Source of the DNA: a virus
Length of the DNA stretch: 43,626 nucleotides
Strand: one strand, 5' to 3'
Virus record (IMG/VR): IMGVR_UViG_3300037430_000005
Span: 1 to 43,626 of that record
Each line of letters begins with the position of its first letter. The first letter of the stretch is position 1. The notes under the pieces are model-generated. The model saw only the letters and a program-made list of their open reading frames with translations. It was not told the DNA's origin and searched no databases. Below, piece by piece: positions 3,362 to 18,847 of this stretch. A program made the translations under genes and the position numbers.

Positions 3362-3423
3362 CGCGAAGGCGACCGACAGGTGACTCGTCACCGTCGGCTT
3401 ACCGCGTCCTCGATGCGGAGTCA
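3362..3423 (+). repeat. Structured intergenic repeat R1 (CGCGAAGG-N28-CTTACCGCG)
   Basis: Box1 at 3362..3369, box2 at 3398..3406. Internal hairpin CCGACAGGTGAC/GTCACCGTCGG. The tail abuts the RHH stop codon at 3421. Confidence 0.85.
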
Positions 3424-3600
3424 TTCATCAGATTCACGAAACAACACCGCATCCACGCCTTCCCGACGCAGCGAGACGTTCAGGGCACGGCGGATATACT
3501 CTGCGACCGAGATGTGCCGCAGCCGCGCTGCGTGCTTCAGCCAGTCGTGTTCCTCGACCGTCGCCTGCAATCGAATGGTGGACGCGGTAAGTGTCCTCAT
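3421..3600 (-). CDS. Ribbon-helix-helix (CopG/Arc-type) DNA-binding protein, 59 aa
   Basis: Not in the ORF track because it is under 60 aa. Hand translation: MRTLTASTIRLQATVEEHDWLKHAARLRHISVAEYIRRALNVSLRREGVDAVLFRESDE. ATG 3600 overlaps the upstream TGA as ATGA. AAGGAG Shine-Dalgarno (SD) site at 3617..3622. Confidence 0.7.
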   Translation of the reverse strand: MRTLTASTIRLQATVEEHDWLKHAARLRHISVAEYIRRALNVSLRREGVDAVLFRESDE

Positions 3601-3625
3601 GGCTGCTCTGTCGGTCTCCTTCGCG
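3566..3625 (-). repeat. Structured repeat R2 (CGCGAAGG-N26-CTTACCGCG), inverted relative to R1
   Basis: Box1 at 3618..3625, box2 at 3583..3591 (minus strand). Contains the SD site, start codon and first codons of the RHH gene. Confidence 0.85.
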
Positions 3626-3800
3626 TATGAACGTCTTCCGTATCTTCTTTATTCTCTTGAGGTTGCGCGGGCACGGCGGGGGGAAGGGCGGCAGCGGGTG
3701 GCTCGTCAGGGTCCGAGCGTGGGGCCGAACACTCCGGCTCGTGAACAATCTCTCCGTCAACTTCCAGTGCGCTCCCGCAATAGCCGCAGGCATATGGCAT
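3597..3800 (-). CDS. Hypothetical small protein with an N-terminal Cys pair
   Basis: 67 aa, MPYACGYCGS...EPEC. Abuts the neighbouring genes, with stop/start coupling on both sides. Confidence 0.5.
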   Translation of the reverse strand: MPYACGYCGSALEVDGEIVHEPECSAPRSDPDEPPAAALPPAVPAQPQENKEDTEDVHTRRRPTEQP

Positions 3801-4022
3801 TTACTTGTCCTCCGCGAGCATCCATGCCCACAACTTCAACAATGTGTCAGCGTCAAAGGCTTGCCCGGTTTCGATCCGCATCAACGTCGCGTGTCCGATT
3901 CCAATCTGCGGCGCGAGGTCACGTAATGAGAGCCCGCGCACAGTGCGATACAGACGGAACATCTCGCCGAGGCGCGTCTGGCGCTGTATACGAGCGCGCA
4001 GCGTGGACGGTCGTTTAAGCAT
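3801..4022 (-). CDS. XRE-family helix-turn-helix regulator
   Basis: In-frame ATG at 4022. GEMFRLYRTVRGLSLRDLAPQIGIGHATLMRIETGQ is a typical XRE HTH. Confidence 0.65.
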   Translation of the reverse strand: MLKRPSTLRARIQRQTRLGEMFRLYRTVRGLSLRDLAPQIGIGHATLMRIETGQAFDADTLLKLWAWMLAEDK

Positions 4023-4467
4023 CGCCGTGCGGCCCCTGCCCGTCACAGTGACGACATTGGTCGAGTGGGTGATAACAGATCGCGCAGTAGCCGAAGGAAC
4101 CTGCTGGCCGCTTCTCCTCTGGGGGACACGCCGCGACATCTTCCGGCCCCGGACGGAGAGCGACCGCTAAAGCCGCTTCCAGTTCTTCCGCCCGCAAGTT
4201 GCGGTAGAACGCATCATCGGGCGTCCCGACGGGTTGGGACCATCCGAGCTTATAACGCGCGGAGTCGCGCTCAGCGGTCAGGGTGCGAATCTGAGCTTCC
4301 AATGACTCGACTTCTGAAGCTGGGGGACACGCCGCGACGAGGTCGGCCCACTCCACCCACGTCCCTTCCGCGTCAGGCTCCAGATGAATGAGGCCGGATG
4401 CGCCCGCTAATCGCATACGGTATCGTCGCAGCGTCTCCACCCACGCGGGGAGTGTCTTAATAGTCAA
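4015..4467 (-). CDS. Hypothetical protein with a C-terminal Cys/His cluster
   Basis: The start is uncertain: TTG 4467 with GGAAAGGA upstream, or ATG 4416. The C-terminus reads YCAICYHPLDQCRHCDG. The longer listed N-terminus would run through repeat R3. Confidence 0.5.
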   Translation of the reverse strand: MTIKTLPAWVETLRRYRMRLAGASGLIHLEPDAEGTWVEWADLVAACPPASEVESLEAQIRTLTAERDSARYKLGWSQPVGTPDDAFYRNLRAEELEAALAVALRPGPEDVAACPPEEKRPAGSFGYCAICYHPLDQCRHCDGQGPHGDA

Positions 4468-4485
4468 CGCTTTACAATCCTTTCC

Positions 4486-4545
4486 CGCGAAGGGGACAGG
4501 CCGAGCGTCCCCCTGATCACTTACCGCGTCCACCAGCACGCTTAG
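4486..4545 (+). repeat. Structured repeat R3 (CGCGAAGG-N26-CTTACCGCG)
   Basis: Box1 at 4486..4493, box2 at 4520..4528. Internal hairpin GGGGAC/GTCCCC. Overlaps the stop and last codons (GRGK*) of 4517..4741. Confidence 0.85.
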
Positions 4546-4741
4546 ACGGAGGCACGGGACGTGCGGCCCGTCGTGCATCCTCTTCGCGCCAGTCCAACAT
4601 CGTCGTCACCATCGCCTTGACCGCCTGCGGCACATACCCCGCTGCGAGATCGGCCGCTTGCTGTTCGTTGACAAGTAAATAAAACTCGGTTTCGTGCTCC
4701 TGGTTCCGTTGGGCGAGCTCGGCGCGGAGGGCGTCCGTCAT
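4517..4741 (-). CDS. Hypothetical protein, 74 aa
   Basis: ATG 4741 overlaps the stop of 4738..5115 as ATGA. Translation MTDALRAELAQRNQEHETEFYLLVNEQQAADLAAGYVPQAVKAMV... Confidence 0.55.
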   Translation of the reverse strand: MTDALRAELAQRNQEHETEFYLLVNEQQAADLAAGYVPQAVKAMVTTMLDWREEDARRAARPVPPSKRAGGRGK

Positions 4742-5115
4742 GTTTCCTTGATCACGATCCCGTATTGCGCCTCGACGTGTTTCTTCTTCCACCGATAGAG
4801 GGGGGTTTTGAAGCCTTTCACGTCCTCGACCACATACGGCGTCGTGCGCCTGTCGGAGTACTTGAAATCCCCCCGATACTCCCCGATCCGTCGCGCGGCC
4901 GGCGTCCGAAACGCCCCCGCCAGATAGCCCGTCGTGGACTCCACCAGTAAGGGGAACCGCGGTTGCAGTTGAAGATCCCAAATCTTCCCCGCCTTCTCCA
5001 GCAGCTTCAATTCCTGATACCGCCGCGCTTCCTTCGCGGAATGGAACGTAATCCCGTCCACCGTCGTGGGCACGGCGCCATACTTGGACCGCTTGCGCGA
5101 TGGCCCGACCCTCAT
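4738..5115 (-). CDS. DUF1064-like putative endonuclease or resolvase
   Basis: KYGAVPTTVDGITFHSAKEARRYQELKLLEKAGKIWDLQLQPRF ... YRGDFKY ... VVEDVKGFKT follows the DUF1064 pattern. Confidence 0.55.
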   Translation of the reverse strand: MRVGPSRKRSKYGAVPTTVDGITFHSAKEARRYQELKLLEKAGKIWDLQLQPRFPLLVESTTGYLAGAFRTPAARRIGEYRGDFKYSDRRTTPYVVEDVKGFKTPLYRWKKKHVEAQYGIVIKET

Positions 5116-5300
5116 TCCGTATACCCCTTGAGATCCGCCTGCGCCTTGACCGCCCGCTGCGCCTCATAAAACGTCATGCGCTGCAACGCGTACGATCCAC
5201 ACGGGGTACACGGCCCATACGCGGCCTGATCATCCCGTTGGACCCGATTGCCGCGCCAGCCGCAAAGCTTACAGATCACGGCGTAACGAGGTTTCCTCAC
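5112..5300 (-). CDS. Small zinc-ribbon protein
   Basis: 62 aa with a GTG start. CKLCGW...CTPCG. ATGA coupling with the downstream gene. Confidence 0.5.
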   Translation of the reverse strand: MRKPRYAVICKLCGWRGNRVQRDDQAAYGPCTPCGSYALQRMTFYEAQRAVKAQADLKGYTE

Positions 5301-5320
5301 GAACGATCACGACGATCATG

Positions 5321-5383
5321 CGCGAAGGGGACATGCAGAGCGTCCACCGTGCCGCTTACCGCGTCCCCCATCTCACAGGTCAT
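5321..5383 (+). repeat. Structured repeat R4 (CGCGAAGG-N26-CTTACCGCG)
   Basis: Box1 at 5321..5328, box2 at 5355..5363. The tail CCCATCTCACAGG ends at the stop of 5380..5823. Confidence 0.85.
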
Positions 5384-5823
5384 CGGCCAAACCGCGTCGG
5401 CTTCTTGCGTGACGTGCCCGCTTCCTGGCTGAAATCATCTGCACTCTTGGGTTTCAACTTGAACCGTTCGCCGGCCGCACAGGTGCACGGCGTCCCGTAC
5501 TCATGTTGATAGTTAGAGAGCGGGGCCGTCACACACAGCCGGCGATACTTACCCGGCCGCTCGTGCCAGGTGTCCGTCCGGCTCGAGACACCGTTGCAGC
5601 GATCCCCCCGCCGGCAGAGCTTCGTGATCAACCCGGTGTCCTGGCACTGCGAGCAGAGGTATTTCCATTCGCGCACCTGGGGCCAGGCGGCGCGCAAGGT
5701 GCGCTCGAGCGTGGCGTTGAGCTCGGCTGGCGAGGCGCCTTCCGCCCGCGCCAGATCGCGCAGCCGGAGCGCTTCCTTCAGCGTCGCCGCGAGCCCTTCC
5801 GCGGTCACGAGGGGCGGCGTCAT
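5380..5823 (-). CDS. Cys-rich hypothetical protein
   Basis: 147 aa. CSQCQDTG...C..C...CTC. ATGA overlap with the upstream gene. Confidence 0.55.
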   Translation of the reverse strand: MTPPLVTAEGLAATLKEALRLRDLARAEGASPAELNATLERTLRAAWPQVREWKYLCSQCQDTGLITKLCRRGDRCNGVSSRTDTWHERPGKYRRLCVTAPLSNYQHEYGTPCTCAAGERFKLKPKSADDFSQEAGTSRKKPTRFGR

Positions 5824-6572
5824 GCGGGCACCGGATGCCGGGTTTCCCAGGCCGAGAGCCGATCCGACAACCAGCTGAACTTGGCGCGGAACACTTCAAT
5901 GCCCCGGTCGCTGGCGACGATAAACTCGTCGTCTGTTTTGTCCGACAGGAGAATTTGGGCGTATTTTTTAAGGCGATCGAGGTCCGTCGCGCCGAGCATT
6001 TCCTTCACCATCGCCCCGTGTTTCGCCCAACTGACGAGGTAGTCCGCGCCTGAGCGTCGGGCTTTGTATTCGCTCTGAAACCAGACGAGAAATTCACGGA
6101 CGCGGGGGTCCGCCGGCTTTTTCGGCGGCTCAACAACCGAAGGTTGTTTCTGTACTTTGGGATTGGGATTGGGAGTCGTGTTACCAACACCGTTACCAAC
6201 GCCGGTGTACGCCGCCTGTAACGGTGTTACAGCGCCCGTACGGAGCCGTCGCACCCGTTCAGTTGTTTCGGCCCGTTTCTTGAGGATTTTGGCCTTCGAG
6301 GCTTGATATTTCAGATAGTCATGGACGAGAAAGCCGTCCACGCCCCTGCGTGTGGTCGCCGACCAGAGGCGTAAGTCACACAATTTTGTGGAAAAAACTT
6401 CAGGATGGTCCGCCGGCACGAGCCGCGCCACTTGACTCACCGGGATGAACCCGTTCGTGAGCAGCCGATTGCAGTAGCAGAGGCCGGCGACGTAGAGCCA
6501 CGCGCCCAGCGGCCCCGCCGAGACGATCTTCGGATGGTCGGGAAAATGATCATCGATTCGCACCCACGGCAT
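5820..6572 (-). CDS. Putative replication-associated DNA-binding protein (replisome-organiser-like N-terminus)
   Basis: 250 aa. N-terminus WVRIDDHFPDHPKIVSAGPLGAWLYVAGLCYCNRLLTNGFIP. Located in the early operon. The function is inferred weakly. Confidence 0.3.
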   Translation of the reverse strand: MPWVRIDDHFPDHPKIVSAGPLGAWLYVAGLCYCNRLLTNGFIPVSQVARLVPADHPEVFSTKLCDLRLWSATTRRGVDGFLVHDYLKYQASKAKILKKRAETTERVRRLRTGAVTPLQAAYTGVGNGVGNTTPNPNPKVQKQPSVVEPPKKPADPRVREFLVWFQSEYKARRSGADYLVSWAKHGAMVKEMLGATDLDRLKKYAQILLSDKTDDEFIVASDRGIEVFRAKFSWLSDRLSAWETRHPVPA

Positions 6573-6826
6573 TACTTCGGTGCCACCTTTCGCGCATCGC
6601 CCGCTGTGGACTTGATTGTTGGCTATCTGACAGAACGCCGATCGTTACGTGCGTTACACTCCCCCGGGATGGCCCAGATCGTGATCTTCCCCGCCGTCGA
6701 ACCCGTCACCTGTGGATCCTGGGCGGGCGTCCCGGTCCATGTCTGGACACCGGCATCCCTCCCTGGATCGCCCTGCGTCTGTGGACGATCCGTGCTGCCG
6801 ACGTACGACGACGACGAATACTTTCC

Positions 6827-6893
6827 CGCGAAGGGTCGAGATCAGGTAATTCCTTCCTGCCACTTACCGCGCCGCCCATCTCATGATTCATAG
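6827..6893 (+). repeat. Structured repeat R5 (CGCGAAGG-N28-CTTACCGCG)
   Basis: Box1 at 6827..6834, box2 at 6863..6871. The tail CCCATCTCATGATTCAT covers the stop codon of 6881..7249. Confidence 0.85.
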
Positions 6894-7249
6894 AGCAGGG
6901 ACCGCACAGCGGCATCCTTTGCTTCGAGCAACTTCCGCAGCGCCACGGTCCGCTCGGGGTTGCGCGGGTAAGTGGCTTCCAGATGGACCGCGAGATCACA
7001 AAACGGCCGACTCCCGGTCTGTAACTGCGCCGGCAGATGCGCGTACCGAAAGAACTGCATCAAGGGCTCCTGAACGGCTTTCCCGGCCTGCTGTGTCCGC
7101 TCTACCGCCTCGACCTTTTCTTTCATTGCCTTGATCCGGATTTCGGCAGCAGTCGGATGCATCCGTTCTAATTGGTCGAGCACCTCACGCCGCGTGTCGC
7201 CTTCCGCTTCGCCCAACACGTTGCCGTCCCGGTCAAACGCTTGTCCCAT
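6881..7249 (-). CDS. Hypothetical phage protein
   Basis: ATG 7249 is preceded by AAAGGAG. 122 aa, ...FFRYAHLPAQLQ...ALRKLLEAKDAAVRSLL. Confidence 0.6.
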   Translation of the reverse strand: MGQAFDRDGNVLGEAEGDTRREVLDQLERMHPTAAEIRIKAMKEKVEAVERTQQAGKAVQEPLMQFFRYAHLPAQLQTGSRPFCDLAVHLEATYPRNPERTVALRKLLEAKDAAVRSLLYES

Positions 7250-7366
7250 GTGCGCGCTCCTTTGAAGGTGGCCCGACAAAAATCGCGGGCGGCTGCGGAA
7301 TCTCGGCATTGATCGGTCGCCACAAATGCAAGGGAATTATATACTTGAGTGCGAAGCATGATTGAA

Positions 7367-7807
7367 TCACGATTCTGTCTTGCAGTCGGCCGTCTCCCTG
7401 TCGTGTTCGTGCTTGCAGACAGGGCAGATGACTCCCGATGTGAAGTACTCGCGCAGCCGGTCCCAACAGCCCTCGCAAAACGGGCCGACGAAATCAGCGT
7501 AGGCCGGGTGTGGCTTCGCCGACTCGCCGCAATTGGTGCAGATGGGAGGACCAGCACGCCAAGGCACGCCATCGGCAGAATGAATCTGATGGTCGCGGTG
7601 ATATTCACAGTCCTTGCACCAGATGTCGCGGTCGTCTCCTGGCTCATGGGGCGTGCGCGAATTGAACGGGTGCGGCACCAGTTCTTCGTCCGGACATTCG
7701 TGGTCAAGATCGAAGACGAACCCAGAGTGGCAGTTGCAGCAATGAACATCCACCGCCGTGCCGTGCTCGCAGACGTGATCGCCGATGTCGTTGACCGTGA
7801 CTTTCAT
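7367..7807 (-). CDS. Cys/His-rich (multi-zinc-site-like) protein, cargo of the IS element
   Basis: ATG 7807 with AAGGAG upstream. Motifs HVCEH..HCCNCH..HEC..WCKDCEYH..CTNC..CEGC..CPVCKHEH. Confidence 0.6.
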   Translation of the reverse strand: MKVTVNDIGDHVCEHGTAVDVHCCNCHSGFVFDLDHECPDEELVPHPFNSRTPHEPGDDRDIWCKDCEYHRDHQIHSADGVPWRAGPPICTNCGESAKPHPAYADFVGPFCEGCWDRLREYFTSGVICPVCKHEHDRETADCKTES

Positions 7808-7808
7808 G

Positions 7809-7940
7809 TCACTTCTCCTTCGCGATCTTCGTGGCCCGGCGCTTCCGCCGTCGGGCGGGTTTACTCTTTGCCTTCGGGCGGTAGGCCAGCACCACGTCCA
7901 CAATCGCGTCCAGTTGTTTTGGAACCTTCGTCTTCGTCAT
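7809..7940 (-). CDS. Small basic protein (43 aa), cargo of the IS element
   Basis: Hand translation MTKTKVPKQLDAIVDVVLAYRPKAKSKPARRRKRRATKIAKEK. ATG 7940 overlaps the upstream TGA as ATGA. Confidence 0.4.
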   Translation of the reverse strand: MTKTKVPKQLDAIVDVVLAYRPKAKSKPARRRKRRATKIAKEK

Positions 7941-8332
7941 GGCCGGTTCTCATCGCCGTCCATCGCGTCAGTTCCTGCGAACGGTGGGTAGGGCTCGACG
8001 CGCCCGCTCTCCACCTTAGCGATGGCGGCTTCAGCTTTGGCGTATGGACAGTTGTCCCAGTGCGTCTTAGCCGGATTTCGGAGCACGCCGGAATCACACA
8101 TCGGGCAACCCCATCGCTCAGCGAAGATTCCCCGCAGGGCCGCGAGCAGGTCCGGCGCGGCGGCGATCAATCGGGCGTTAGCAGCGTTCTCCGCACGCGA
8201 CAGACCCGATCCAATATCCGGCGTGCAAGGCGCGGTGATTGCGAAGTGGCTGACCTTCGCGATGGCCATCCCATCGCCTTCGTTGATTTCCCACGGTCCA
8301 GGTGTATGCGTCGCGGTCCAAGTTGTGTCCAT
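7937..8332 (-). CDS. Hypothetical protein (GPWE...ANARLIAAAPDLL motif), cargo of the IS element
   Basis: 131 aa. The SD site TAGGAG overlaps the transposase stop, so the gene is co-transcribed with tnp. Confidence 0.6.
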   Translation of the reverse strand: MDTTWTATHTPGPWEINEGDGMAIAKVSHFAITAPCTPDIGSGLSRAENAANARLIAAAPDLLAALRGIFAERWGCPMCDSGVLRNPAKTHWDNCPYAKAEAAIAKVESGRVEPYPPFAGTDAMDGDENRP

Positions 8333-8341
8333 CGCAATCTC

Positions 8342-9265
8342 CTACTGAATCAGTGCCTTGTAAGTGAGTCGTTTGTCGGCCCTCCCGTCCACGAACGAGT
8401 CGAGCCGGTCGAGCGTGTGAATCTTGACGTTGCCTTCGTTCAGGCGGAACGTGAACTCGTCCACGTAGCGCGGGAGATGCTTCGGGCTGGCGTGATGGTA
8501 GACACCCATCAGCCCGCGCTTCAGGACCGCCCAAACACTCTCAATGCTGTTCGTGTGCGCCGCGCCGCGTGCGTATTCCCCGAGCGAGTGGTTGATGGTG
8601 TCGTGCCGAAAGAACAGCCCGTCGAGCCCGTCGAAGATGGCGCTGTCGTCGGTGTAGAGTTGCGAGCCCGCTTCGACGTTCCGGTGAATCTCGCCGTGAA
8701 CCTCATCGAACGTCATCTGACCGGACGGCCGCGCCTGCATCCGGCCGCCGCGTTCCTTCATGCCGAGCACGGCCGTTTTGCCGACTGGCCCGCGTCCCGC
8801 GTGCAGCTTTTTGTTCTCGTGCTTGTTCCCCTCCAGGCCGCCGACGAAGGTTTCGTCAATCTCGATGATGCCGCGCAACTTCCGCAGGTTCCGGCCGCCG
8901 CACGCTTCGCGGAGTCGGTGCAACTGGAACCATGCCGTCTTCTGGGTCACGCCGATCTGCTTGGCGAGCTGGAGACTGGAGATCCCCTTGCGGGCCGTGA
9001 CGAGCAGATACATGGCGTAGAGCCACTTGTGCAGCGGGATGTGCGACCGCTCAAGGATCGTGCCGGTTCGCACGGTGAAGACTTCCCGGCAGGGGTTGCA
9101 GCGGTAGTAGCCGACGCGCTTCGTGCTCACGACGCCAGCCTGACCCTTACAGACCGGGCAAACGGGGCCAACCGGCCAGAGTCGAGACTCGAAATACACG
9201 CGGGCCGACTCCTGATTGGGGAACCGCTCGAACAGTTGGAAGGTACTGATAGTGCTTTTCGCCAT
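8342..9265 (-). CDS. tnp: IS1595-family DDE transposase
   Basis: 307 aa. N-terminal zinc ribbon CPVCKG...YRCNPC. DDE-region motifs IIEIDETFVGG, LYTDDSAIF and HTNSIESVWAVLKRG. Confidence 0.85.
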   Translation of the reverse strand: MAKSTISTFQLFERFPNQESARVYFESRLWPVGPVCPVCKGQAGVVSTKRVGYYRCNPCREVFTVRTGTILERSHIPLHKWLYAMYLLVTARKGISSLQLAKQIGVTQKTAWFQLHRLREACGGRNLRKLRGIIEIDETFVGGLEGNKHENKKLHAGRGPVGKTAVLGMKERGGRMQARPSGQMTFDEVHGEIHRNVEAGSQLYTDDSAIFDGLDGLFFRHDTINHSLGEYARGAAHTNSIESVWAVLKRGLMGVYHHASPKHLPRYVDEFTFRLNEGNVKIHTLDRLDSFVDGRADKRLTYKALIQ

Positions 9266-9371
9266 GCCCTAATTGTAGCAAAAACGCCGTGCGCACTCAA
9301 GTATATAATTCCCCAATAGAGACACATCGCCAGCGCGGTACCGCAGTGGTGACAGGCTTGGACGTCGTGGC

Positions 9372-9677
9372 TCACGCGAAGTCCTTATCCCAGGCAATCG
9401 CCACATCGCCAGCGATCGGATTCGTCGTGCCGGGCTTGCATACGGAGTGATACAGCTTGGTGGCGGCCGGGTTGATCGGTTTGCCGTCGATCAAGCCGAC
9501 GTCATCCACGAGCATGATGCGCCCGTCGCGCAGATTCACCGTGTCGATGGTGTCCGCGCCGATCATGCGCTGGCACCAATTGAGCAAGATAGAACGGCCG
9601 ACATGGTGTTCTTCGTCCTGGCCGTTCGTGCGGAGAATTGTCACGACGGCGAGTTTCTTCATCGTTTCAGTCTTCAT
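9372..9677 (-). CDS. DUF3846-like protein
   Basis: ...RMIGADTIDTVNLRDGRIMLVDDVGLIDGKPINPAATKLY...IAGDVAI. The start is ATG 9677 or 9662. Confidence 0.5.
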   Translation of the reverse strand: MKTETMKKLAVVTILRTNGQDEEHHVGRSILLNWCQRMIGADTIDTVNLRDGRIMLVDDVGLIDGKPINPAATKLYHSVCKPGTTNPIAGDVAIAWDKDFA

Positions 9678-9909
9678 CTGCGTAGCCACAATCCCAGTCG
9701 TGGTAATCCGTGAACAGCGCGCACCCACAGTCGGGACAATGCGGATCGTCCACGCATTCAGGACACGTCTGATCACACGCGCGGCACCACGAGAGCTGAT
9801 GATCGCCGCAGAACTCGTGGACGGCCGCGTGGCCCGTGAAGTCACGGCACCACGGATCGCGGTAGCCGTCGTCGTCCTGCGGGTAGGGTTCTTCGTCTTC
9901 GGTGCTCAT
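9667..9909 (-). CDS. Acidic Cys-rich small protein
   Basis: 80 aa. WCRD..H..H.FC..H..WCRACDQTCPEC..HCPDCGC. Its leader and start codon lie in repeat R6. Confidence 0.6.
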   Translation of the reverse strand: MSTEDEEPYPQDDDGYRDPWCRDFTGHAAVHEFCGDHQLSWCRACDQTCPECVDDPHCPDCGCALFTDYHDWDCGYADED

Positions 9910-9970
9910 GCGGTCACCATCGTCAACGCGGTAAGTGGACGCTGGGAATTACCTGTCGGTTACCTTCGCG
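9907..9970 (-). repeat. Structured repeat R6 (CGCGAAGG-N27-CTTACCGCG)
   Basis: Box1 at 9963..9970 overlaps the last codons and TAA of 9960..10163. Box2 is at 9927..9935. The tail ACGATGGTGACCGCATGAGC supplies the start of 9667..9909. Confidence 0.85.
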
Positions 9971-10163
9971 CATAAAATTCTTGATCTTCGTCGTGCCCGC
10001 GTCGGGCGATCACCCGCAGTCGATCCAATCGATCACTGGCTTCCTGATCCCACGGCCGCGATCGAAAGCGGACATCTTCCTCCCGTCGTTGCAGGAAGAC
10101 GCGGACGTAGATGCCCCCCATCGCCACCACAAAGACGCCGACGACGAGCAGGACATACCTCAT
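9960..10163 (-). CDS. Small membrane protein
   Basis: 67 aa with the N-terminal hydrophobic helix MRYVLLVVGVFVVAMGGIYV. Confidence 0.5.
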   Translation of the reverse strand: MRYVLLVVGVFVVAMGGIYVRVFLQRREEDVRFRSRPWDQEASDRLDRLRVIARRGHDEDQEFYARR

Positions 10164-13486: not shown

Positions 13487-13497
13487 GGGGCTTTCAA

Positions 13498-13947
13498 CTA
13501 AAACGGGATGTCCGCATCGTCGAAGGGATAGATGTCCGTCTCGAGCTCCGGGTCCGGTGTCAGCGCGTGTGCCGGCGCGGGCTTCGGTTTCGGCGGCGGC
13601 GCGGCGGGGGTCATGTGGATCCGGCTCTTCCCGTTGGGCGACTTGATCCGCACCACGTCGTAACTCTCGCCGCCGTAATCCGCTTCCGCGGTGTAGAGCT
13701 TCACGGCCGTGCCTGGCCACTCTTCGGTCATGCCCGAGCCGGAAATTTCAATAATCTTGTTGGCGTTCGTCTTGTTCAGGACGATGCCCTTTTCCTTGCC
13801 CGCAAAGTAGACGACCGGCTTCATCTCGCGCGTCCGGCCGACGGGTTCAAACTCCACCCGCTCAATCGTCACCACCGGCTCGTGCCCTTTCAGGTCGTGG
13901 GCTTTCAGGTATTTCGTCGGAAACACGTCATTAATGTTGGGGGACAT
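13498..13947 (-). CDS. Putative ssDNA-binding protein with an SSB-type C-terminal tip
   Basis: Start ATG 13947, 149 aa. A Pro-rich linker is followed by ...IYPFDDADIPF at the C-terminus. Confidence 0.4.
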   Translation of the reverse strand: MSPNINDVFPTKYLKAHDLKGHEPVVTIERVEFEPVGRTREMKPVVYFAGKEKGIVLNKTNANKIIEISGSGMTEEWPGTAVKLYTAEADYGGESYDVVRIKSPNGKSRIHMTPAAPPPKPKPAPAHALTPDPELETDIYPFDDADIPF

Positions 13948-13949
13948 AA

Positions 13950-14240
13950 TTACTTTCGGGGATCCACGCCCCACGGCGTGCTCGGGGTGATCGATCCGAT
14001 GACCTTCGCGGCTTCGGCCCGCGCCAATCCCGCGGCCAACTCAAACAGCGGCGCGTTCGGTTTCACGGCCTCGATCACGGCTTCGGCCATCGTGATGTAG
14101 GTGTGCCGTTCGGGCAGGGACAACGCCTCCCAATGGATCACGTCCAGCTGATAACACGTCGCCCGCGCGAGATAGATCACATGGGCCAACTGCGCCAACG
14201 CGGCTGCTTTTGGTAATCCACACAAAGGTGACGGACTCAC
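13950..14240 (-). CDS. Hypothetical protein
   Basis: GTG 14240 overlaps the upstream TGA as GTGA. 96 aa. Confidence 0.45.
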   Translation of the reverse strand: MSPSPLCGLPKAAALAQLAHVIYLARATCYQLDVIHWEALSLPERHTYITMAEAVIEAVKPNAPLFELAAGLARAEAAKVIGSITPSTPWGVDPRK

Positions 14241-14392
14241 GGCTGCCCCGCCGCCAAGAACACCACGACACAGGTCGGGCACATCGAATGGGAGGTCGGC
14301 AGGGTCGGATCGCCGACGTGTTCGATCCGGCGGCACCACGCACACTGGATCGTGAAGTCTTCCGGCACCGGCGCGAGGTCTGGGTTGTTCAT
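14237..14392 (-). CDS. Small zinc-ribbon protein (51 aa)
   Basis: Hand translation MNNPDLAPVPEDFTIQCAWCRRIEHVGDPTLPTSHSMCPTCVVVFLAAGQP. High third-position GC. ATGA overlap with the upstream gene. Confidence 0.55.
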   Translation of the reverse strand: MNNPDLAPVPEDFTIQCAWCRRIEHVGDPTLPTSHSMCPTCVVVFLAAGQP

Positions 14393-14592
14393 GGTCTGGC
14401 TCGGAATCGTGGCCGCGGTAACTCTTTCGGTGGACGCTCTGCGTATCGCCGTCGCGGGAAGATTTCTTGGTACGCTTCGTCGTCGTAGTCCTCATCCGCT
14501 GCTGTGACGTCTCCGCGGATCGCTTTCCCGATCCCCACGGCGACACACAGCACCAAGGCGACGCCGAGCAGGATCCAGCCCCAGGGATTCAT
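14389..14592 (-). CDS. Small membrane protein whose C-terminal ~25 aa are encoded by repeat R7
   Basis: MNPWGWILLGVALVLCVAVGIG is a transmembrane helix. The tail FPRRRYAERPPKELPRPRFRARP is read from the repeat. Confidence 0.5.
   Translation of the reverse strand: MNPWGWILLGVALVLCVAVGIGKAIRGDVTAADEDYDDEAYQEIFPRRRYAERPPKELPRPRFRARP
14390..14456 (-). repeat. Structured repeat R7 (CGCGACGG-N26-GTTACCGCG), a divergent copy
   Basis: Box1 at 14449..14456, box2 at 14414..14421. The tail ends at ATG 14392. Confidence 0.75.
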
Positions 14593-14855
14593 ACGGGGCT
14601 GTTCTTGAGATACCGCGTGACCAGCTCCCCGCTGTACCGCTTCTTCCGCCCCACGGGTCGGCGAAATTCAAACCGCTTCAGCTTCCCGGCTTTCTGAAAC
14701 GCGTAGAACGTCGCGGGCCGCAGGTTGAGGGCGCGCATCAATTCCCCGGCGCCCATCGCGTTCGGTAAGGGTTCGCCGACGTGATACGGCCTGGCAGGCT
14801 CGTGGATCACCGCAGACGGCTTCTGGTCTTCCAACAGTCCAACTGGCTCGGTCAT
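14589..14855 (-). CDS. HTH (excisionase/MerR-type HTH_17) protein, first gene of the early leftward operon
   Basis: ATG 14855. The listed 14891 start is a TTG that coincides with a TTGACA -35 box. GELMRALNLRPATFYAFQKAGKLKRFEF...YSGELVTRYL. Confidence 0.55.
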   Translation of the reverse strand: MTEPVGLLEDQKPSAVIHEPARPYHVGEPLPNAMGAGELMRALNLRPATFYAFQKAGKLKRFEFRRPVGRKKRYSGELVTRYLKNSPV

Positions 14856-14862
14856 GTCGGCT

Positions 14863-14891
14863 AGTGTATACGTCCGATAGTCTCCTGTCAA
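14863..14891 (-). promoter_or_regulatory. Candidate early promoter: -35 TTGACA, 17-nt spacer, -10 TACACT (or TATACA with 15 nt). It would give a near-leaderless transcript.
   Basis: The minus strand reads TTGACAGGAGACTATCGGACGTATACACTAGCCGACATG. Confidence 0.4.
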
Positions 14892-14916
14892 GTGTCTGAG
14901 GGTCTGTTGGCCATGC

Positions 14917-14938
14917 GTACGGATCCATGGATCGGTAC
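14917..14938. promoter_or_regulatory. 22-bp near-perfect palindrome, candidate operator
   Basis: GTACGGATCCATGGATCGGTAC. The 12-bp core GATCCATGGATC is perfect and the outer GTAC arms are also symmetric. It lies between the divergent repressor and the early operon. Confidence 0.4.
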
Positions 14939-15165
14939 GATGATCCGACAGTCACGGCTGAGGTAGGCGGTTTGTCAGTGCCGTTGTGACGAATCGATAG
15001 CGAAAGTCTGTAGGCGACGGTAGGACAGGACCGGAGTCGGTCAGAACTGGCTAGATTTATGGCTAGACGCTATGCGACACTGTGCCCAATTATTCCAGTA
15101 TCGACTTCCCGATATTCCACATGGGTATATCTGTCGTCATAAATCGTAAATCCGATGAGTCTGTG

Positions 15166-15615
15166 ATGAGCGACACGACTGTAGCTTTTACTGTAGGGGA
15201 CGTGATCCGCAAACTCCGCAAAGATCGCCATTGGTCTATCCGCAAGCTGCAACACGAAAGCGGCATCGGTCGGATGACGATCTCCGCGATCGAACGCAAC
15301 GAATCGAACTACCAGAAAGACACGCTCGATGCGCTCGCCCTCGCGTTCAAGATGAAAAGCGGCGCCGAGCTGGAAGCCCTGGCGAGTCTGTCGCCGTCGC
15401 GCACGCGTCGTGCGACCGATAGCGATCTCGCGCCGGAATGGATCGCGTTCACGCGGCGCGTGATGCGGCTCAATCGCCAGGCGCAAGGCGCGTTGCATGT
15501 GATCGTGTTGGCGTTTGAAGACGCGGGCGCCGTGAGCCCGCACGACGCCCCGGAGGCCGACGACCCCGCCGCGCCGGCGCCCGCCCATCCCCATCCCCCG
15601 GCACATCAGGGCTAA
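15166..15615 (+). CDS. CI-like XRE-family repressor
   Basis: ATG 15166. VGDVIRKLRKDRHWSIRKLQHESGIGRMTISAIERNESNYQKDTLDALALAF. Divergent from the early operon and adjacent to the integrase. Confidence 0.7.
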   Translation: MSDTTVAFTVGDVIRKLRKDRHWSIRKLQHESGIGRMTISAIERNESNYQKDTLDALALAFKMKSGAELEALASLSPSRTRRATDSDLAPEWIAFTRRVMRLNRQAQGALHVIVLAFEDAGAVSPHDAPEADDPAAPAPAHPHPPAHQG

Positions 15616-15724
15616 CCGCCCACACTCCAGGCTGGTACACTTGACGCTATCTTTGCGCCGTGGAATAGGCTAGACTCCGGTCAAATGTCAGCCATCCGAC
15701 AGAGCGAAAGGGCTGAGGTGTGTT

Positions 15725-15928
15725 ATGGCCCCGTCGTCGTTGGCGTCGATCGTTGCGCCCGTCGTCCACCTGATTCATCCCCACCAGACCGCGGTGCTCC
15801 AGCTCCTGATGCGGCATGCGATTGCGTTGCTTGCCCTCGAGGGGGACGCCTTCGTGCAGACGGCCGATGATCTGCTGGTGTCCCGCCTGCGCGATCTCGC
15901 GGCCGTCGCGGACAAGCTCCCCCACTAA
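15725..15928 (+). CDS. Hypothetical protein (67 aa)
   Basis: High third-position GC in this frame. Convergent with int, overlapping it by 4 nt. The overlapping minus ORF looks worse. Confidence 0.4.
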   Translation: MAPSSLASIVAPVVHLIHPHQTAVLQLLMRHAIALLALEGDAFVQTADDLLVSRLRDLAAVADKLPH

Positions 15929-16926
15929 CGGGCGAAGCGGCCGGTGAGCAGATCGCTGACGCGTCGTTGCCGGCTCGCCTGTAAGGGCCCGTAGTACGCG
16001 CGGGTCGTCTCGATCTGGGTATGGCCCAGGAGCCCTTGCACGTCGCCCAGATCGGCGCCGGCCTCGAGCGCGGCAAAGGCAATCGCATGCCGCGCGTTAT
16101 ACGGCCGAATGCCTTTCGGCCAGCCGCACGACCGTAAGAGCCGCGCTTGCTTCGTCGTATCAAACCACCCCCAGGCGTGGGCCACGATGAACAACCGCCA
16201 CGCGGCAAGTTGATCGCGATTGAGATAGACGGGATGCGCGGGTTCGTTCTTGGCGCTGCGCACGATCCAGATCTTCTTTCGGAGCTGCACGTCTTCCGGC
16301 GTGGCGGCCATCAACTGCCCGGCTCGCTGGCCTGTCGTGACGAGGACGCGATACCGCGCATACGCCTGGGCGTTGCCGGTGCGCTTCAACCGCTCCCCCA
16401 CCCGGCGAATCGTCTCGAGCGGCACGTCCACGGGCTGCGCCTTCGGCGTTTTGGGTTTCTTCGCGTCGGCGATGGGATGGCGGGCATGCTTGCCTTGGAG
16501 CGTTTGATAGAGCTCGCGCAGCACCCGGCAGCGATGCAGGATCGTTTTGTCGCTGACGCCATCGATCTGCCACGCTGCAATCGCCAGGTTCACATGCTCC
16601 GTCTTGATCCGGCTGAGCGCCCACGACCCCAAGCGCGGGAGCCACGCGCGCAGATGGGACCGATCCGCAGGGCCACTCACCCGGCCAGCGATCTGTTTGA
16701 CGTACGTGGTCACGGCCTCCGTCAATGTCCCGCGCAGCATTGGCACCGCGGCGTCGGCCGCCCGATCCAACAGCTCAGCCGTGGTCCGCGCTCGCCACGC
16801 CTGCATCAACAGCACGTCCATATCGGGCGGGAAGCGTTTCGTCCGGACCTGGCCCTTCGCCTTCACCCGGACATCAAAGCCATACCGATCCCGATGAATC
16901 CCGGTCGCCACCAACGTCCGGTCCAT
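15925..16926 (-). CDS. int: Tyrosine integrase
   Basis: ATG 16926 with GAGAGGA upstream. C-terminal catalytic region RPYNARHAIAFAALEAGADLGDVQGLLGHTQIETTRAYYG. Confidence 0.85.
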   Translation of the reverse strand: MDRTLVATGIHRDRYGFDVRVKAKGQVRTKRFPPDMDVLLMQAWRARTTAELLDRAADAAVPMLRGTLTEAVTTYVKQIAGRVSGPADRSHLRAWLPRLGSWALSRIKTEHVNLAIAAWQIDGVSDKTILHRCRVLRELYQTLQGKHARHPIADAKKPKTPKAQPVDVPLETIRRVGERLKRTGNAQAYARYRVLVTTGQRAGQLMAATPEDVQLRKKIWIVRSAKNEPAHPVYLNRDQLAAWRLFIVAHAWGWFDTTKQARLLRSCGWPKGIRPYNARHAIAFAALEAGADLGDVQGLLGHTQIETTRAYYGPLQASRQRRVSDLLTGRFAR

Positions 16927-17094
16927 GTGTCCTCTCTTTTTTGGGTCGTGGCCGAGCCCAACGACGGGCCTCCACCCCACCCCCTCCATTCCGCTGTCCG
17001 AAAACGGGTGGAGTTTACTAGAGATTTCAAGAGGTGGCAAATGAACGCACTTCGGGCGGGAATCGGCGGAATCGGTGAATTTGCTGAGGAAAAG

Positions 17095-17144
17095 TGGTTG
17101 CGGGGGCGGGATTTGAACCCGCGACCTTTGGGTTATGAGCCCAA
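17095..17144 (-). other. attP core: 3' ~50 nt of an initiator-type tRNA-Met(CAU) gene, not a complete tRNA
   Basis: The minus strand reads TTGGG-CTCATAA-CCCAA AGGTC GCGGG-TTCAAAT-CCCGC CCCCGCA ACCA. No D-arm or 5' acceptor strand is present upstream. It lies 170 bp from int. Confidence 0.75.
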
Positions 17145-17302
17145 CGCCCGATCCCTGATCAGGTCAGCTTTGCGCCTGTTCCACGTGGAACGGCTGGACT
17201 CCACTCTCGTGCCTCCACTCCGCGGATCGTCGCTCCTGGGGCACGCCAGCCGCCTTCCTGCCCCGATGGCGTGACAGACCGTGCAGCGGCCGCCGATTCC
17301 CC

Positions 17303-17331
17303 TTGCGGCACATATGCTAATCTGCTAATCT
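17303..17331 (+). promoter_or_regulatory. Candidate promoter of the plus-strand island (-35 TTGCGG, 17 nt, -10 TAATCT), overlapping the tandem GCTAATCT GCTAATCT
   Basis: The 8-mer tandem repeat is at 17316..17331. ATG 17338 follows 6 nt later, suggesting a leaderless transcript. Confidence 0.3.
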
Positions 17332-17337
17332 GTGTTC

Positions 17338-17541
17338 ATGAAGCCGGTTGACCCGCTCGCCACCCTCCGCGCCTTCGTGGCGACCCATCCGACGCAACAG
17401 AGCGCCGCCGCGGCCCTGGAGATGAGCCCGGCGTATCTCAGCGACCTCTTGAACGAGCGGCGGGATTTCAGCGCCGCTGTCCTCGCGCGTCTGGGCCTCA
17501 CGCAGATTGTCGTGAAAGCCAGCAAACCCATCGGCCGGTAA
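17338..17541 (+). CDS. Small HTH (Cro/YdaS-like) DNA-binding protein
   Basis: MKPVDPLATLRAFVATHPTQQSAAAALEMSPAYLSDLLNERRDFS. Confidence 0.55.
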   Translation: MKPVDPLATLRAFVATHPTQQSAAAALEMSPAYLSDLLNERRDFSAAVLARLGLTQIVVKASKPIGR

Positions 17542-17556
17542 GAAAGTCTGTCCGCC

Positions 17557-18072
17557 ATGCCCCGCCTCCTGATCGCCCTCGTCGCCAGTCTCCTGATCGC
17601 CTCCCCTGTCGTCGCCGCCCCGGCCTGGCCCCACTGCGCCGTGGGGTTGCCGACGATTCTCTCCAGCCTCTATGCCCCGGCCGGCGTGTATGACGGCATT
17701 GGCGGACCCCCCGTCACCGTGCAGCAATCCACGGTCTTTCTCGCCGGGAGTGCCTTCAACTGGGTCACGGGCCAGATGCCGCACGACATCACGGTGGAGT
17801 TCGTCTCGTGGACGGATGCCCCCGGCGGCCCGGATTGGGTCACCGCCCCGGGCACCGTTGCCCGGATGCAGTCCTATACCCTGTTGAAGCGGCCGGATGT
17901 CAGCGCCCACGCGGCGGCCACGATGAAATGGAAGCACATCTCGGCCTTTACCGGCTTCGCGCTCTACTTCATCGACCCGCCGCCGTTCGATACGCGCTTT
18001 CTTCGGATCACCTACCGGGATCCGTACTGTCCCACGACGACGCAGTACGTGCCCGTCACCGTTGTCCCCTAA
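17557..18072 (+). CDS. Secreted protein of unknown function
   Basis: Signal-peptide-like MPRLLIALVASLLIASPVVAAPA. Very high third-position GC. The long antisense ORF 17317..18540 is a shadow. Confidence 0.65.
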   Translation: MPRLLIALVASLLIASPVVAAPAWPHCAVGLPTILSSLYAPAGVYDGIGGPPVTVQQSTVFLAGSAFNWVTGQMPHDITVEFVSWTDAPGGPDWVTAPGTVARMQSYTLLKRPDVSAHAAATMKWKHISAFTGFALYFIDPPPFDTRFLRITYRDPYCPTTTQYVPVTVVP

Positions 18073-18102
18073 TAACCCATCGGTCCGATTGAAAGTGACA
18101 CC

Positions 18103-18297
18103 ATGAAGCTGTTGATGATCGCCGCCGTCCTCGCGCTCAGTCTCGCCTCCCTCGCGGCCGTCGGCACCGAAACCTGCTTTCTCGAGAGTGAGCAGGACGC
18201 CGGGATGAACAAGATTTGTTTCTATAGCTGCGTGAGTGGGGATGCCGCGATCACGATCAAGGCCGTGCAACTCTGTCCGCTCAGTATTAAACGCTAG
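18103..18297 (+). CDS. Small secreted 4-Cys protein
   Basis: MKLLMIAAVLALSLASLAAVG signal-like N-terminus. The mature part has 4 Cys. Confidence 0.55.
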   Translation: MKLLMIAAVLALSLASLAAVGTETCFLESEQDAGMNKICFYSCVSGDAAITIKAVQLCPLSIKR

Positions 18298-18319
18298 AAG
18301 GAAGAGACGAACGATCAGG

Positions 18320-18387
18320 CGCGAAGGCCGCCGACAGCTAACTCGTCGGCGGCCCCTTACCGCGGCCACGGAGGTGACCTCATGAGC
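18320..18387 (+). repeat. Structured repeat R8 (CGCGAAGG-N28-CTTACCGCG)
   Basis: Box1 at 18320..18327, box2 at 18356..18364. Internal hairpin CCGCCGAC/GTCGGCGG. The tail ACGGAGGTGACCTCATGAGC supplies the SD site and start of 18382..18795. Confidence 0.85.
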
Positions 18388-18795
18388 CACGTAACACTGA
18401 CGCTCACGCGGCGACAACTCGCTATCCTGGGGGCAGTGCTGGGTCGGTGCGAGGGCTGGGATGATCCGCGTGAACTGCAGCGGTTCGTCTCCATCGCGGC
18501 TGACAGCGTGCGAGAGGGCTGGACTGAGACCGAGATGCACGCGCTCGGGGAACTGCTAGCCGAGGCCGATAACCGGATCCGTGTGCCGTGCGAACCTGAT
18601 CTCGCGCGGCTCCAGCGTGGGCTCGCGCGGCTCAACCCGATGCAACGCTCATCGCCGGAAACCCGCTCCTGCGTCTTCTGCGGTGCGGACAAAGGCCACA
18701 GCTACGTGACCGGCGACCGCACGCCGCACACGCCCGATTGTGAATGGCGGCTCGCGTGTGAAGCGCGCGGCATTCCGTGGAATCATGTCTTATGA
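18382..18795 (+). CDS. Hypothetical protein (137 aa), bracketed by R8 and R9
   Basis: GGAGGTGA SD site 7 nt upstream. C-terminal Cys cluster CVFCG...H..C..C. Confidence 0.6.
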   Translation: MSHVTLTLTRRQLAILGAVLGRCEGWDDPRELQRFVSIAADSVREGWTETEMHALGELLAEADNRIRVPCEPDLARLQRGLARLNPMQRSSPETRSCVFCGADKGHSYVTGDRTPHTPDCEWRLACEARGIPWNHVL

Positions 18796-18847
18796 GATGG
18801 TCGCCGCGGTAAGTGTTCGGGTGACTGCTCACCATGTCCCATTCGCG
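18785..18847 (-). repeat. Structured repeat R9 (CGCGAATG-N26-CTTACCGCG), inverted relative to R8
   Basis: Box1 at 18840..18847, box2 at 18805..18813. The tail ACCATCTCATAAGACAT covers the stop of 18382..18795. Confidence 0.8.

Follow-up and report, generated by a model that had tools for sequence, protein, structure and literature searches.

The viral stretch of 43,626 nt analysed here at its full length (IMG/VR record IMGVR_UViG_3300037430_000005, positions 1 to 43,626, hereafter the window) carries nine copies of a short repeat, R1 to R9, in which two conserved boxes, CGCGAAGG and CTTACCGCG, flank a variable spacer. The repeat is a real, conserved and previously undescribed motif. Its copies sit at gene junctions, are mosaics of a few modules and coincide with breakpoints between phages. 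It is best explained as a lineage-restricted, selectively maintained gene-junction repeat that divides the early, accessory and lysogeny genes into cassettes.

The copies were searched with the pattern CGCGAAGG-N24-30-CTTACCGCG and with an nhmmer profile built from the aligned copies including their flanks. The exact pattern matched seven times in the window and never in 100 shuffles, and R7 and R9 proved to be degenerate copies with one or two mismatches. The profile recovered exactly nine copies in the window, with E values of 1e-11 to 1e-17, and the next match reached 7 bits. An earlier note on this DNA had reported nine copies, five on the plus and four on the minus strand, limited to the early and lysogeny half of the genome and missing from the structural half; pattern and profile bore out their number, positions, strands and distribution. 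The size of about 60 bp given for the unit was too short, the real unit measuring about 85 nt when the GA-rich 5′ flank is included. From 5′ to 3′, the repeat consists of this flank (a GA-rich, 3-periodic stretch of about 25 nt followed by a short T-rich stretch), CGCGAAGG (box 1), a variable spacer of 26-30 nt, CTTACCGCG (box 2) and a short tail. The tails described as shared were confirmed, CCATCTCA in R4, R5 and R9 and ACGRWGGTGACCKCATGAGC in R6 and R8.

Exact-pattern scans followed by profile scoring identified seven further copies in six other phage-like metagenome contigs, so the motif does occur outside the window genome, as the profile search proposed in the earlier note was to establish. 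Two of them form a convergent pair in the IMG/VR contig L012, at 3978-4054 (+) and 4854-4933 (-), while L020, L001 and the short JGI soil contigs L156, L160 and L161 carry one copy each. Across the resulting 16 copies on seven contigs, 14 alignment columns were invariant, all of them inside the boxes (CGCGA..G and TTACCGCG); outside the boxes, a CAG at a fixed offset in the spacer and a C two bases past box 2 were near-invariant. The spacer was 26 nt long in eight copies, 27 nt in two, 28 nt in four, 29 nt in one and 30 nt in one. Its identity among copies ranged from 43 to 79%, and two loose types could be distinguished, type A (CCGACAGGTR…) and type B (…GCAGAGCGTCCACC), with hybrids such as that of R2.

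The metagenome scan gave three true matches in 241 M records. The scan of genome collections gave at least 120 single matches and, among the matches listed, all were chance matches by profile scoring, a result that is still compatible with copies of the repeat in host genomes. Related terminases, with identities of up to 74%, served to select 41 loci (453 kb), and these held no copy. When the exonuclease was taken as the anchor, one distant relative was found and it was devoid of the repeat, and the 614-aa protein as anchor yielded no relative. A scan with box 2 plus tail returned only coding look-alikes, and one with the type-B spacer plus box 2 returned L020 only. These searches thus show a rare repeat, limited to a small group of soil phages. 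The gene content common to the window and the element-bearing contigs is small: a protein with four cysteines (4-Cys protein) in L012, an 82-aa protein in L020, the genes of the R7 locus in L156 and a non-coding block of 85 nt in L160. The 4-Cys gene (6669-6893), which ends in R5, is the one gene that the window and L012 have in common (59% identity along 44 aa); the protein index held no homologue of its product and, for the 82-aa protein, only itself. The R7 locus is kept in L156 and probably also in L020. There, the nucleotide alignment of window, L156 and L020 covers the element only, at about 78% identity, while the homologous flanking genes are unalignable. The element is thus more tightly constrained than the genes beside it. 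The gene between R8 and R9 was considered as a co-mobile partner of the repeat and rejected, its homologues in L163, L165, L167 and L168 having no copy.

Relative to the surrounding genes, roughly eight of the 16 copies are in sense orientation, four are antisense and four lie at convergent junctions. Specifically, R6, R7, R8, the second copy of L012 (L012b) and the copies of L020, L156 and L161 are sense copies lying 17-21 nt before a start codon, and R2 contains an ATG. The antisense copies (R1, R3, R4 and the first copy of L012, L012a) are found between co-directional genes, 0-16 nt from the upstream stop codon, and R5, R9, L160 and L001 are at convergent gene ends. Two of the three convergent junctions of the window carry a copy vs none of the three divergent ones. 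The open reading frame (ORF) upstream on the same strand often runs into a sense copy, and several such ORFs encode small membrane proteins with an acidic tail. Gene ends are indeed read out of the repeats, as claimed before: ARR* of 9960-10163, the last ~22 codons of 14389-14592 and RGK* of 4517-4741. That every copy touches a stop or start codon is true only loosely, R1 being 14 nt from the stop of the ribbon-helix-helix (RHH) gene and R4 having a stop at a distance of 16 nt and a start at 20 nt. Tail 1 (ACGAnGnnGACCnCATGAGC; R6, R8, L012b and L161) amounts to a ribosome-binding site (RBS), a start codon and a Ser codon; as far as its ATGAGC or GTGAGC, this tail is found fused to four mutually unrelated ORFs from three phages. 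In three of the four copies with tail 2 (CCATCTCA; R4, R5, R9 and L012a), the opposite strand of the tail holds the TGA of the convergent or upstream gene.

The modules around the boxes were reassorted. The 5′ flanks fell into GATCAKG, TTTCC and other types, all six combinations of flank and spacer occurred, tail 2 was found with both spacer types, and flank, spacer and tail types thus combined freely across the boxes. A few comparisons between phages could be made at the copies themselves, namely R3 vs L170, the R7 locus vs L020 and L156, and L160 vs window 560-648. L170, whose terminase is 69% identical, has the DUF1064 resolvase and an ortholog of gene 4517-4741; the similarity ends after …EEDxRRAARPV, where R3 begins, and everything onward to the terminase differs. 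The L170 ortholog, which lacks the element, ends in RKAAK*, whereas that of the window ends in PPSKRAGGRGK* and takes its final codons and stop from R3. The comparison of filled and empty sites suggested in the earlier note thus delivered a breakpoint at R3, but L170 shows a replaced region and no precise empty site. L020 has a different gene separating the element from the conserved 82-aa gene. A block that the window has without the element is found about 20 nt before the element in L160. Atypical codon usage, compared with that of the phage itself, was seen in the genes of the R1-R3 block, in the gene between R8 and R9 and in small ORFs running into copies. No target-site duplication flanked any copy. 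The block shared with L160 is a non-coding 85-nt sequence at 560-648 (+) of the window, between the portal and 145-aa genes, about 85% identical to L160 860-945 (-); it may be a small RNA or a late regulatory region.

In contrast to the sequence of the boxes, folding was not a conserved property of the family. The two boxes can pair as the earlier note stated (CGCG/CGCG plus AAG/CTT, with an AC bulge) and are complementary in 16 out of 16 copies; among the seven pairs of this stem, five are invariant and one varies to G-U. Compensatory changes were found in none of the seven pairs across the 16 copies, and the paired-position covariation that had been proposed as a check was seen neither there nor by RNAalifold, in whose output nothing but the four invariant CGCG/CGCG pairs remained, the covariation term being 0. 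The spacer hairpin that had been described as kept by compensating changes did not hold at the family level by folding, RNAalifold or pair counts, and it is not a family property. Compared with dinucleotide shuffles, the whole core folded better in R8 (z -4.45), weakly so in R1 and in no other copy. When the spacers alone were shuffled, R8, L160, R1 (antisense) and R7 (antisense) stood out, that is about four of 16 spacers, and the mean z was -0.2 in sense and -0.5 in antisense. L161, the closest relative of R1 (79% spacer identity), has CCGACAGGTGACTCGT but has lost the complementary hairpin arm. No copy matched Rfam, either at the gathering score or at E <= 5. A terminator scan matched R1 only (minus strand, 3371..3353, overlapping box 1), through an accidental secondary hairpin plus TTGTATTTTC. 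The sequence past the stem is C-rich in sense and A-then-U-rich in antisense.

These data bear on several explanations. That the motif is the by-product of a conserved peptide, an acidic C-terminal tail followed by RR…PP..LPRP in small membrane proteins, is barely credible. One frame of the 5′ flank is often acidic or aromatic (DDDEYF, DEDQEFY, EAYQEIF, DDDDEVF), type-B copies are open in the acidic-tail frame and homologous small membrane proteins read through R7 and the L156 copy. Nevertheless, the boxes are invariant at all three codon positions, the frames differ with spacers of 26-30 nt, and the boxes remain unchanged whether they are read as xRR…LPR (R7, L156), in another frame (R5), cut by a stop (R6, R1), untranslated, or on the opposite strand, where R3 encodes RGK* and the L001 copy has a TAA within box 2. 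Since the boxes are invariant in any frame, untranslated or antisense, the motif is not a peptide by-product, and the frame analysis contradicts the possibility that the earlier note had named as its own refutation. An RNA or single-stranded DNA (ssDNA) element, whose boxes would form a 7-bp AC-bulged stem that closes a variable loop and is recognised by a factor, is unlikely rather than implausible. It could act at transcript boundaries (processing, stabilisation, termination or insulation) or control translation of the next cistron, as might be imagined for the extended start-associated sequences (ESAS) of mycobacteriophages. The universal complementarity of the boxes, the presence of the four CG pairs and of the A-T pair at 15/51 in 16 out of 16 copies and the constant bulge would fit such an element, and in most copies the minimum-free-energy fold is closed by the CGCG stem. 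Moreover, sense copies precede real start codons by 17-21 nt, several copies lie where terminators are expected (convergent junctions and the early/late boundary), and antisense strands fold slightly better than shuffles (the mean z of -0.5). However, the lack of compensatory changes with five of seven pairs fixed, the absence of inner hairpins in about 12 out of 16 copies, the missing U-tract after the stem in either orientation (save for the accidental second hairpin of R1) and the lack of an Rfam match speak against it. In addition, a hairpin could form without the sequence being strictly kept in both orientations, and such invariance is of no use on the complementary strand to a factor that recognises a specific RNA sequence. 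A role as bidirectional terminator or RNA-processing hairpin, one of the options listed before, is thus weakened by the absence of covariation, the mostly shuffle-like folding and the lack of a U-tract. A special form of this idea, in which a trans factor would recognise the bulged 7-bp box stem as punctuation of phage cassettes, seems very unlikely. Acting on RNA, the factor would cut polycistronic early transcripts into cassette mRNAs; acting on ssDNA, the folded DNA would capture or exchange gene cassettes inside the phage genome in an integron-like manner. The consensus stem is followed by K-C-C-A, which resembles the acceptor end of a tRNA, and NCCA is perfect in R2, R3, R7, R8 and L020.

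A selfish element of the miniature inverted-repeat transposable element (MITE) or repetitive extragenic palindromic (REP) type, with the boxes as terminal inverted repeats for a transposase such as the IS1595-like DDE protein (8342-9265) and copies surviving only at harmless insertion sites, would explain other features, and we consider it rather improbable. The invariant, imperfectly inverted termini around a free interior (CGCGAAG … CTT(AC)CGCG in 16 out of 16 copies), the use of both orientations, the restriction to gene boundaries in the plastic half of the genome and the presence in phages with otherwise nothing in common are all as expected of such an element. So are the donation of stops and starts to neighbours, as by mycobacterial interspersed repetitive units (MIRUs), Rickettsia palindromic elements (RPEs) and Correia elements, and the DDE transposase gene with its own promoter between R5 and R6. 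In contrast, a target-site duplication is absent at every copy, the copies have long diverged (spacer identity 43-79%) and show no sign of a recent burst, spacer length is constrained, and the R7 locus is retained in diverged phages, where the element is better conserved than the surrounding genes. Extreme rarity also speaks against it: three true matches in the metagenome records, none in the 41 loci of large-terminase (TerL) relatives and, among the at least 120 genome-collection loci, no true one among the matches listed. The transposase gene has neither matching inverted ends nor a duplication, and L012 has two copies and no transposase. An intact insertion sequence (IS) around the IS1595-like gene with ends matching the boxes was therefore rejected, its 14-nt arms lying inside neighbouring genes and no duplication being present. 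The option of a classical miniature mobile element, also raised in the earlier note, is weakened by the absence of duplications, the divergence, the retained R7 locus and the rarity. Finally, each copy might be a promoter module driving its own strand, as in the repeats of halovirus HF2, sense copies then expressing the gene that follows and antisense copies producing antisense RNAs. This is highly improbable. Sense copies stand 17-21 nt upstream of starts and have an RBS in their tail, A/G-rich sequence makes up the 5′ flank and gives way to a T-rich stretch directly before box 1, and the class I 58-bp repeats of HF2 are reported to carry promoters (PMC8707807). Yet no sigma-70-like -35/-10 pair coincides with any copy, in agreement with the earlier exclusion of a simple promoter, and canonical promoters (TTGACA-17-TACACT, TTGAGT-17-TACAAT) lie elsewhere. 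The three divergent intergenic regions hold no copy, and in about half of the copies the promoter would face the 3′ end of a convergent or upstream gene, leaving no ORF to be expressed. By-eye comparison with alternative-sigma patterns (extracytoplasmic function, sigma-32, sigma-54 and Caulobacter-type) gave no consistent match.

Altogether, we tentatively favour a bipartite recognition site on double-stranded DNA (dsDNA) that lies at cassette junctions and could also be a recombination joint, a reading we hold as possible rather than probable. It is suggested by the strict sequence invariance, the indifference to strand and frame, the narrow range of spacer lengths and the lack of conserved folding, and the context-independent invariance of the boxes fits dsDNA recognition better than a role as RNA or peptide. 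The boxes, an imperfect inverted repeat CGCGAAG / CGCGGTAAG, would be the two halves of a site for a sequence-specific phage or host protein that contacts both across the length-constrained spacer. Binding could result in a roadblock, in cassette insulation or in an architectural effect. Identical patches at many junctions in several phages would in turn provide joints for cassette exchange, and recombination at these shared patches, a proposed consequence of the dsDNA role, may account for the mosaic modules and the breakpoints. Over time, tails would have acquired a ready RBS and ATG, or a stop codon, for the neighbouring gene. Protein binding, its effect and the use of the boxes in recombination are what we infer from the sequence pattern. 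Among the roles that the earlier note had proposed, cassette-boundary element and multi-copy binding site both appear viable and are favoured in view of the conserved sequence, the breakpoints and the supply of starts and stops. Candidate partners by position are the RHH protein, whose gene starts inside R2, and the neighbouring helix-turn-helix (HTH) protein (3801-4022).

Several observations weigh against the dsDNA site. An operator would not usually have half-sites separated by about 36 bp with a constant asymmetry of 2 nt, and complementary boxes with a constant AC bulge are equally expected of an RNA or ssDNA stem. The tight spacing of sense copies to start codons suggests a role at the transcript level. 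No copy is present at the early promoter or in the immunity region (14800-15120), unlike true stoperators. Boxes of 8-9 bp are short for homologous recombination, and module mosaicism could also result from gene conversion or divergence. The 4-Cys protein, the sole gene common with L012, is a further candidate partner, through a weak co-occurrence (n=2). Convergent pairs of copies bracket the RHH gene (R2, R1), the 137-aa gene (R8, R9), a seven-gene block (R6, R5) and two L012 genes; this pattern was rejected as evidence, since three of eight adjacencies are convergent vs two expected at random orientation. Long-range pairing of bracket partners into double-stranded RNA was also rejected, partners being no more alike than other copies (spacer identity 0.50-0.61). 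A link of the elements to attP and the integrase was rejected as well, attP corresponding to the 3′ half of an initiator tRNA-Met gene.

In the block next to the early/late boundary, R1 (3336..3421, core 3362-3406, +) has a type-A spacer of 28 nt with a strong inner hairpin. It is antisense to minus-strand genes at that boundary, 14 nt past the stop of the RHH gene (3421) and 87 nt before the start of 2789-3274. R2 (3568..3651, core 3583-3625, -), with its A/B hybrid spacer of 26 nt, is entirely coding: it comprises the last nine codons and TGA of 3597-3800 and, across an ATGA overlap, the ATG (3600) and first seven codons of the RHH gene. This gene (3421..3600, -) is thus bracketed by R2, which holds its start codon, and R1; its product is NikA-like (DUF6290), below the curated cut-off. 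R3 (4460..4543, core 4486-4528, +) has a type-B spacer and is antisense to minus-strand genes; its box 2 and tail give the end codons (…GGRGK) and TGA of 4517-4741 at the breakpoint with L170. R4 (5295..5378, core 5321-5363, +), with a type-B spacer and the CCATCTCA tail, is antisense between the minus-strand genes 5380-5823 (stop 16 nt away) and 5112-5300 (GTG 20 nt away). R5 (6801..6886, core 6827-6871, +) combines a type-A spacer with the same tail at a convergent junction, where the plus-strand gene 6669-6893 reads through it in sense and the tail holds the TGA of the minus-strand gene 6881-7309.

Further along, R6 (9912..9996, core 9927-9970, -) is a sense copy with a type-A spacer and tail 1 (RBS plus ATGAGC); the TAA of 9960-10163 comes directly past box 1 and the ATG of 9667-9909 is 17 nt past box 2. 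R7 (14399..14482, core 14414-14456, -; CGCGACGG…GTTACCGCG) is also in sense and has a type-B spacer. ORF 14389-14592 reads through it, and the ATG of 14237-14392 lies 21 nt past box 2, with an ATGA overlap between the two genes. R8 (18294..18379, core 18320-18364, +), with a type-A spacer, the strongest inner hairpin and tail 1, is in sense 17 nt before the ATG at 18382. R9 (18790..18873, core 18805-18847, -; CGCGAATG) has a type-B spacer and the CCATCTCA tail and lies at a convergent junction, its tail holding the TGA of the plus-strand gene 18382-18795, with the stop of the minus-strand gene 18867-19049 located 20 nt upstream.

The window represents a complete phage genome of about 43.5 kb with 63% G+C. 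Positions 1-127 and 43500-43626 form an exact direct repeat of 127 nt, and the matching JGI contig has 43501 bp; either the contig was assembled as a circle or the genome has direct terminal repeats. The window is identical to contig Ga0418691_31480 of JGI 3300044699, and one Logan contig is 100% identical, giving zero variation; a near-identity search against GenBank phages found no near relative. The large terminase shares 49% identity with its counterparts in Pelagibacter podophages, and the portal protein resembles that of P22. Most genes are on the minus strand. The early genes span from ~14855 down to ~3400 and include an exonuclease, the 614-aa protein, the IS1595-like DDE protein, a replication initiator, the DUF1064 resolvase and the HTH and RHH proteins; the terminase and structural genes come after them. 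The lysogeny module comprises a CI-like gene (15082-15615, +), the integrase (15925-17040, -) and plus-strand genes at 17332-18795. A strong early promoter lies at 14891-14863 (-), TTGACA-17-TACACT, its -10 element ending 7 nt before the start of gene 14589-14855. The IS1595 family gene 8342-9265 (-) encodes a Zn-ribbon and DDE_Tnp_IS1595 (E 5e-39) and has its own promoter at 9300-9272 (TTGAGT-17-TACAAT), with the ATG 7 nt past the -10 element. Judged from this spacing, its transcript is probably leaderless; the gene showed no inverted ends or target duplication and may be domesticated. The 4-Cys gene (6669-6893, +; MAQIVIFPAVEP…) was not called by JGI and is antisense to the early operon. A TACACT -10 element precedes its ATG by 8 nt, and the L012 homologue (1763-1512, -) has the same start context. 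The early, transposase-gene and 4-Cys-gene transcripts may thus all be leaderless.

Next to the integrase, 17095-17169 (-) holds the 3′ half of an initiator tRNA-Met (CAT) gene (…GGGCTCATAACCCAAAGGTCGCGGGTTCAAATCCCGCCCCCGCAACCA), which is likely the attP core; Rfam matched it as tRNA (31.6 bits) or tmRNA-like, and ARAGORN found no complete tRNA. The immunity region contains three CCRACAGWC sites at 14831-14953 (nine genome-wide vs 4.3 expected) and a 24-bp palindrome, CGTACGGATCCATGGATCGGTACG, at 14916-14939; both are likely operators. The CCGACAG heptamer of these sites is also the core of the type-A repeat spacers. The C-terminal 65 aa of the 137-aa protein, 18610-18795 (+), read LQRG..RL.PMQRSSPET.SC.FC..DK..SYVTGDRTPH…CEWR.ACEARGIPW.HVL. 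This domain is widespread in soil phages, joined to unrelated N-termini (P0001-P0009), and matched no entry in Pfam or PHROG. Small membrane proteins that cross the membrane once and have an acidic C-terminal tail make up a family encoded by genes 9960-10163 (-) and 14389-14592 (-) and by a member in L156. A gene for a small CxxC…CxxC protein comes after each of them, and at least six such zinc-ribbon-like mini-proteins are encoded in the early region. In L012, the region directly after the element pair, 4977-7503 (+), contains ORFs that by eye resemble a NeuB-type sialic-acid synthase, a methyltransferase and a UDP-GlcNAc 2-epimerase.

Repeats at gene boundaries are one of the few handles on how the small early genes of phages are regulated and reshuffled, and most of them are without a mechanism. 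The repeat described here adds a clear case from an uncultivated lineage of soil podophages, and combines invariant boxes, a constrained spacer, either orientation, donation of starts and stops and coincidence with breakpoints. If a protein that binds the repeat, or an activity in recombination, came to light, it would offer a concrete mechanism for the insulation or exchange of cassettes in temperate phages, and the motif could be searched for to locate accessory-gene junctions in metagenomic phages.

In agreement with the earlier note, which recognised no described family, neither Rfam nor the literature as far as searched provided one. A close parallel in architecture is that of the start-associated sequences (SAS) and ESAS of Cluster K mycobacteriophages (PMC3203893), whose function was still unknown in 2025 (PMC12699233). 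Like them, the repeat is multi-copy, limited to the non-structural half, conserved in related phages, built with a variable spacer between inverted repeats and linked to translation starts, with RBS or start-associated sequence just downstream. However, ESAS have 17-bp repeats with a 4-13-bp spacer, are nearly all in one orientation and are always upstream of genes, whereas here boxes of 8-9 bp are separated by 26-30 nt and about half of the copies are antisense or at convergent gene ends. SAS, a 13-bp GGGATAGGAGCCC located a few bp before starts, shows no sequence similarity to our repeat. Sequence, box length, spacer length and orientation therefore all differ from SAS/ESAS, and only the general architecture is common. 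The promoter-early stem-loop (PeSL) cassettes of T4-type phages (PMC2839356, PMC4122927) are similar in that they are short conserved motifs on either side of small accessory ORFs in the plastic parts of the genome, have been put forward as joints at which modules are shuffled by recombination and coincide with insertion or replacement breakpoints between phages, a coincidence also seen here in the few comparisons made. PeSLs, on the other hand, consist of a sigma-70 promoter and a terminator stem-loop and are co-oriented, while the window repeat has no promoter, no conserved stem-loop and a 5 + / 4 - distribution. The intergenic repeats of halovirus HF2 are about 58 bp long and are reported to carry AT-rich archaeal promoters and to be co-oriented with genes (PMC8707807); they also are multi-copy and lie between genes of a tailed virus, but no promoter is evident in our repeat.

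As regards regulation and RNA function, an intrinsic terminator was rejected by the lack of a stem U-tract, by folding that is shuffle-like for most copies and by a scan that matches R1 only, and a structured cis-RNA family by the lack of an Rfam match, a covariation term of 0 and the absence of compensatory changes in all seven pairs. Integron attC sites (R''/R' cores RYYYAAC/GTTRRRY, a folded bottom strand with extrahelical bases, a single, uniformly oriented site for each cassette and the integrase IntI) differ in their core sequences, and the repeat interior folds inconsistently and is found in mixed orientation; the sole tyrosine recombinase of the window is an ordinary phage integrase beside a tRNA-type attP, vs the IntI of integrons. 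The earlier exclusion of a CRISPR array (clustered regularly interspaced short palindromic repeats) is borne out by the variable interior and by distances of 0.2-4.5 kb between copies, which occupy both strands. In Cluster A mycobacteriophages (L5, Bxb1), stoperators are numerous asymmetric sites in short intergenic spaces, bound on dsDNA by a phage protein; they are 13 bp long, identical to the early-promoter operator and consistently oriented with transcription. Unlike them, the repeat has no copy at the promoter and immunity region (14800-15120), where the motifs are CCRACAGWC and the 24-bp palindrome instead, and its site is bipartite over about 45 bp and occurs in mixed orientation. REP/bacterial interspersed mosaic elements (BIMEs), MIRU, Correia and RPE are high-copy repeats of host chromosomes, most of which have either a body that is palindromic throughout or long inverted ends, together with target duplications. 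They share with the window repeat the character of small imperfect palindromes at gene boundaries, in both orientations and in inverted pairs, and MIRU and RPE likewise can supply stop or start codons or be read through. The window repeat is instead phage-borne and very rare, with a non-palindromic interior and no duplication, and its assignment to MITE/REP by duplications, near-identical copies or empty sites was rejected, L170 having a replaced region without a precise empty site. Failing the defining features of each and thus a member of none, the repeat is nonetheless of the same kind as ESAS, stoperators, PeSLs and host interspersed repeats.

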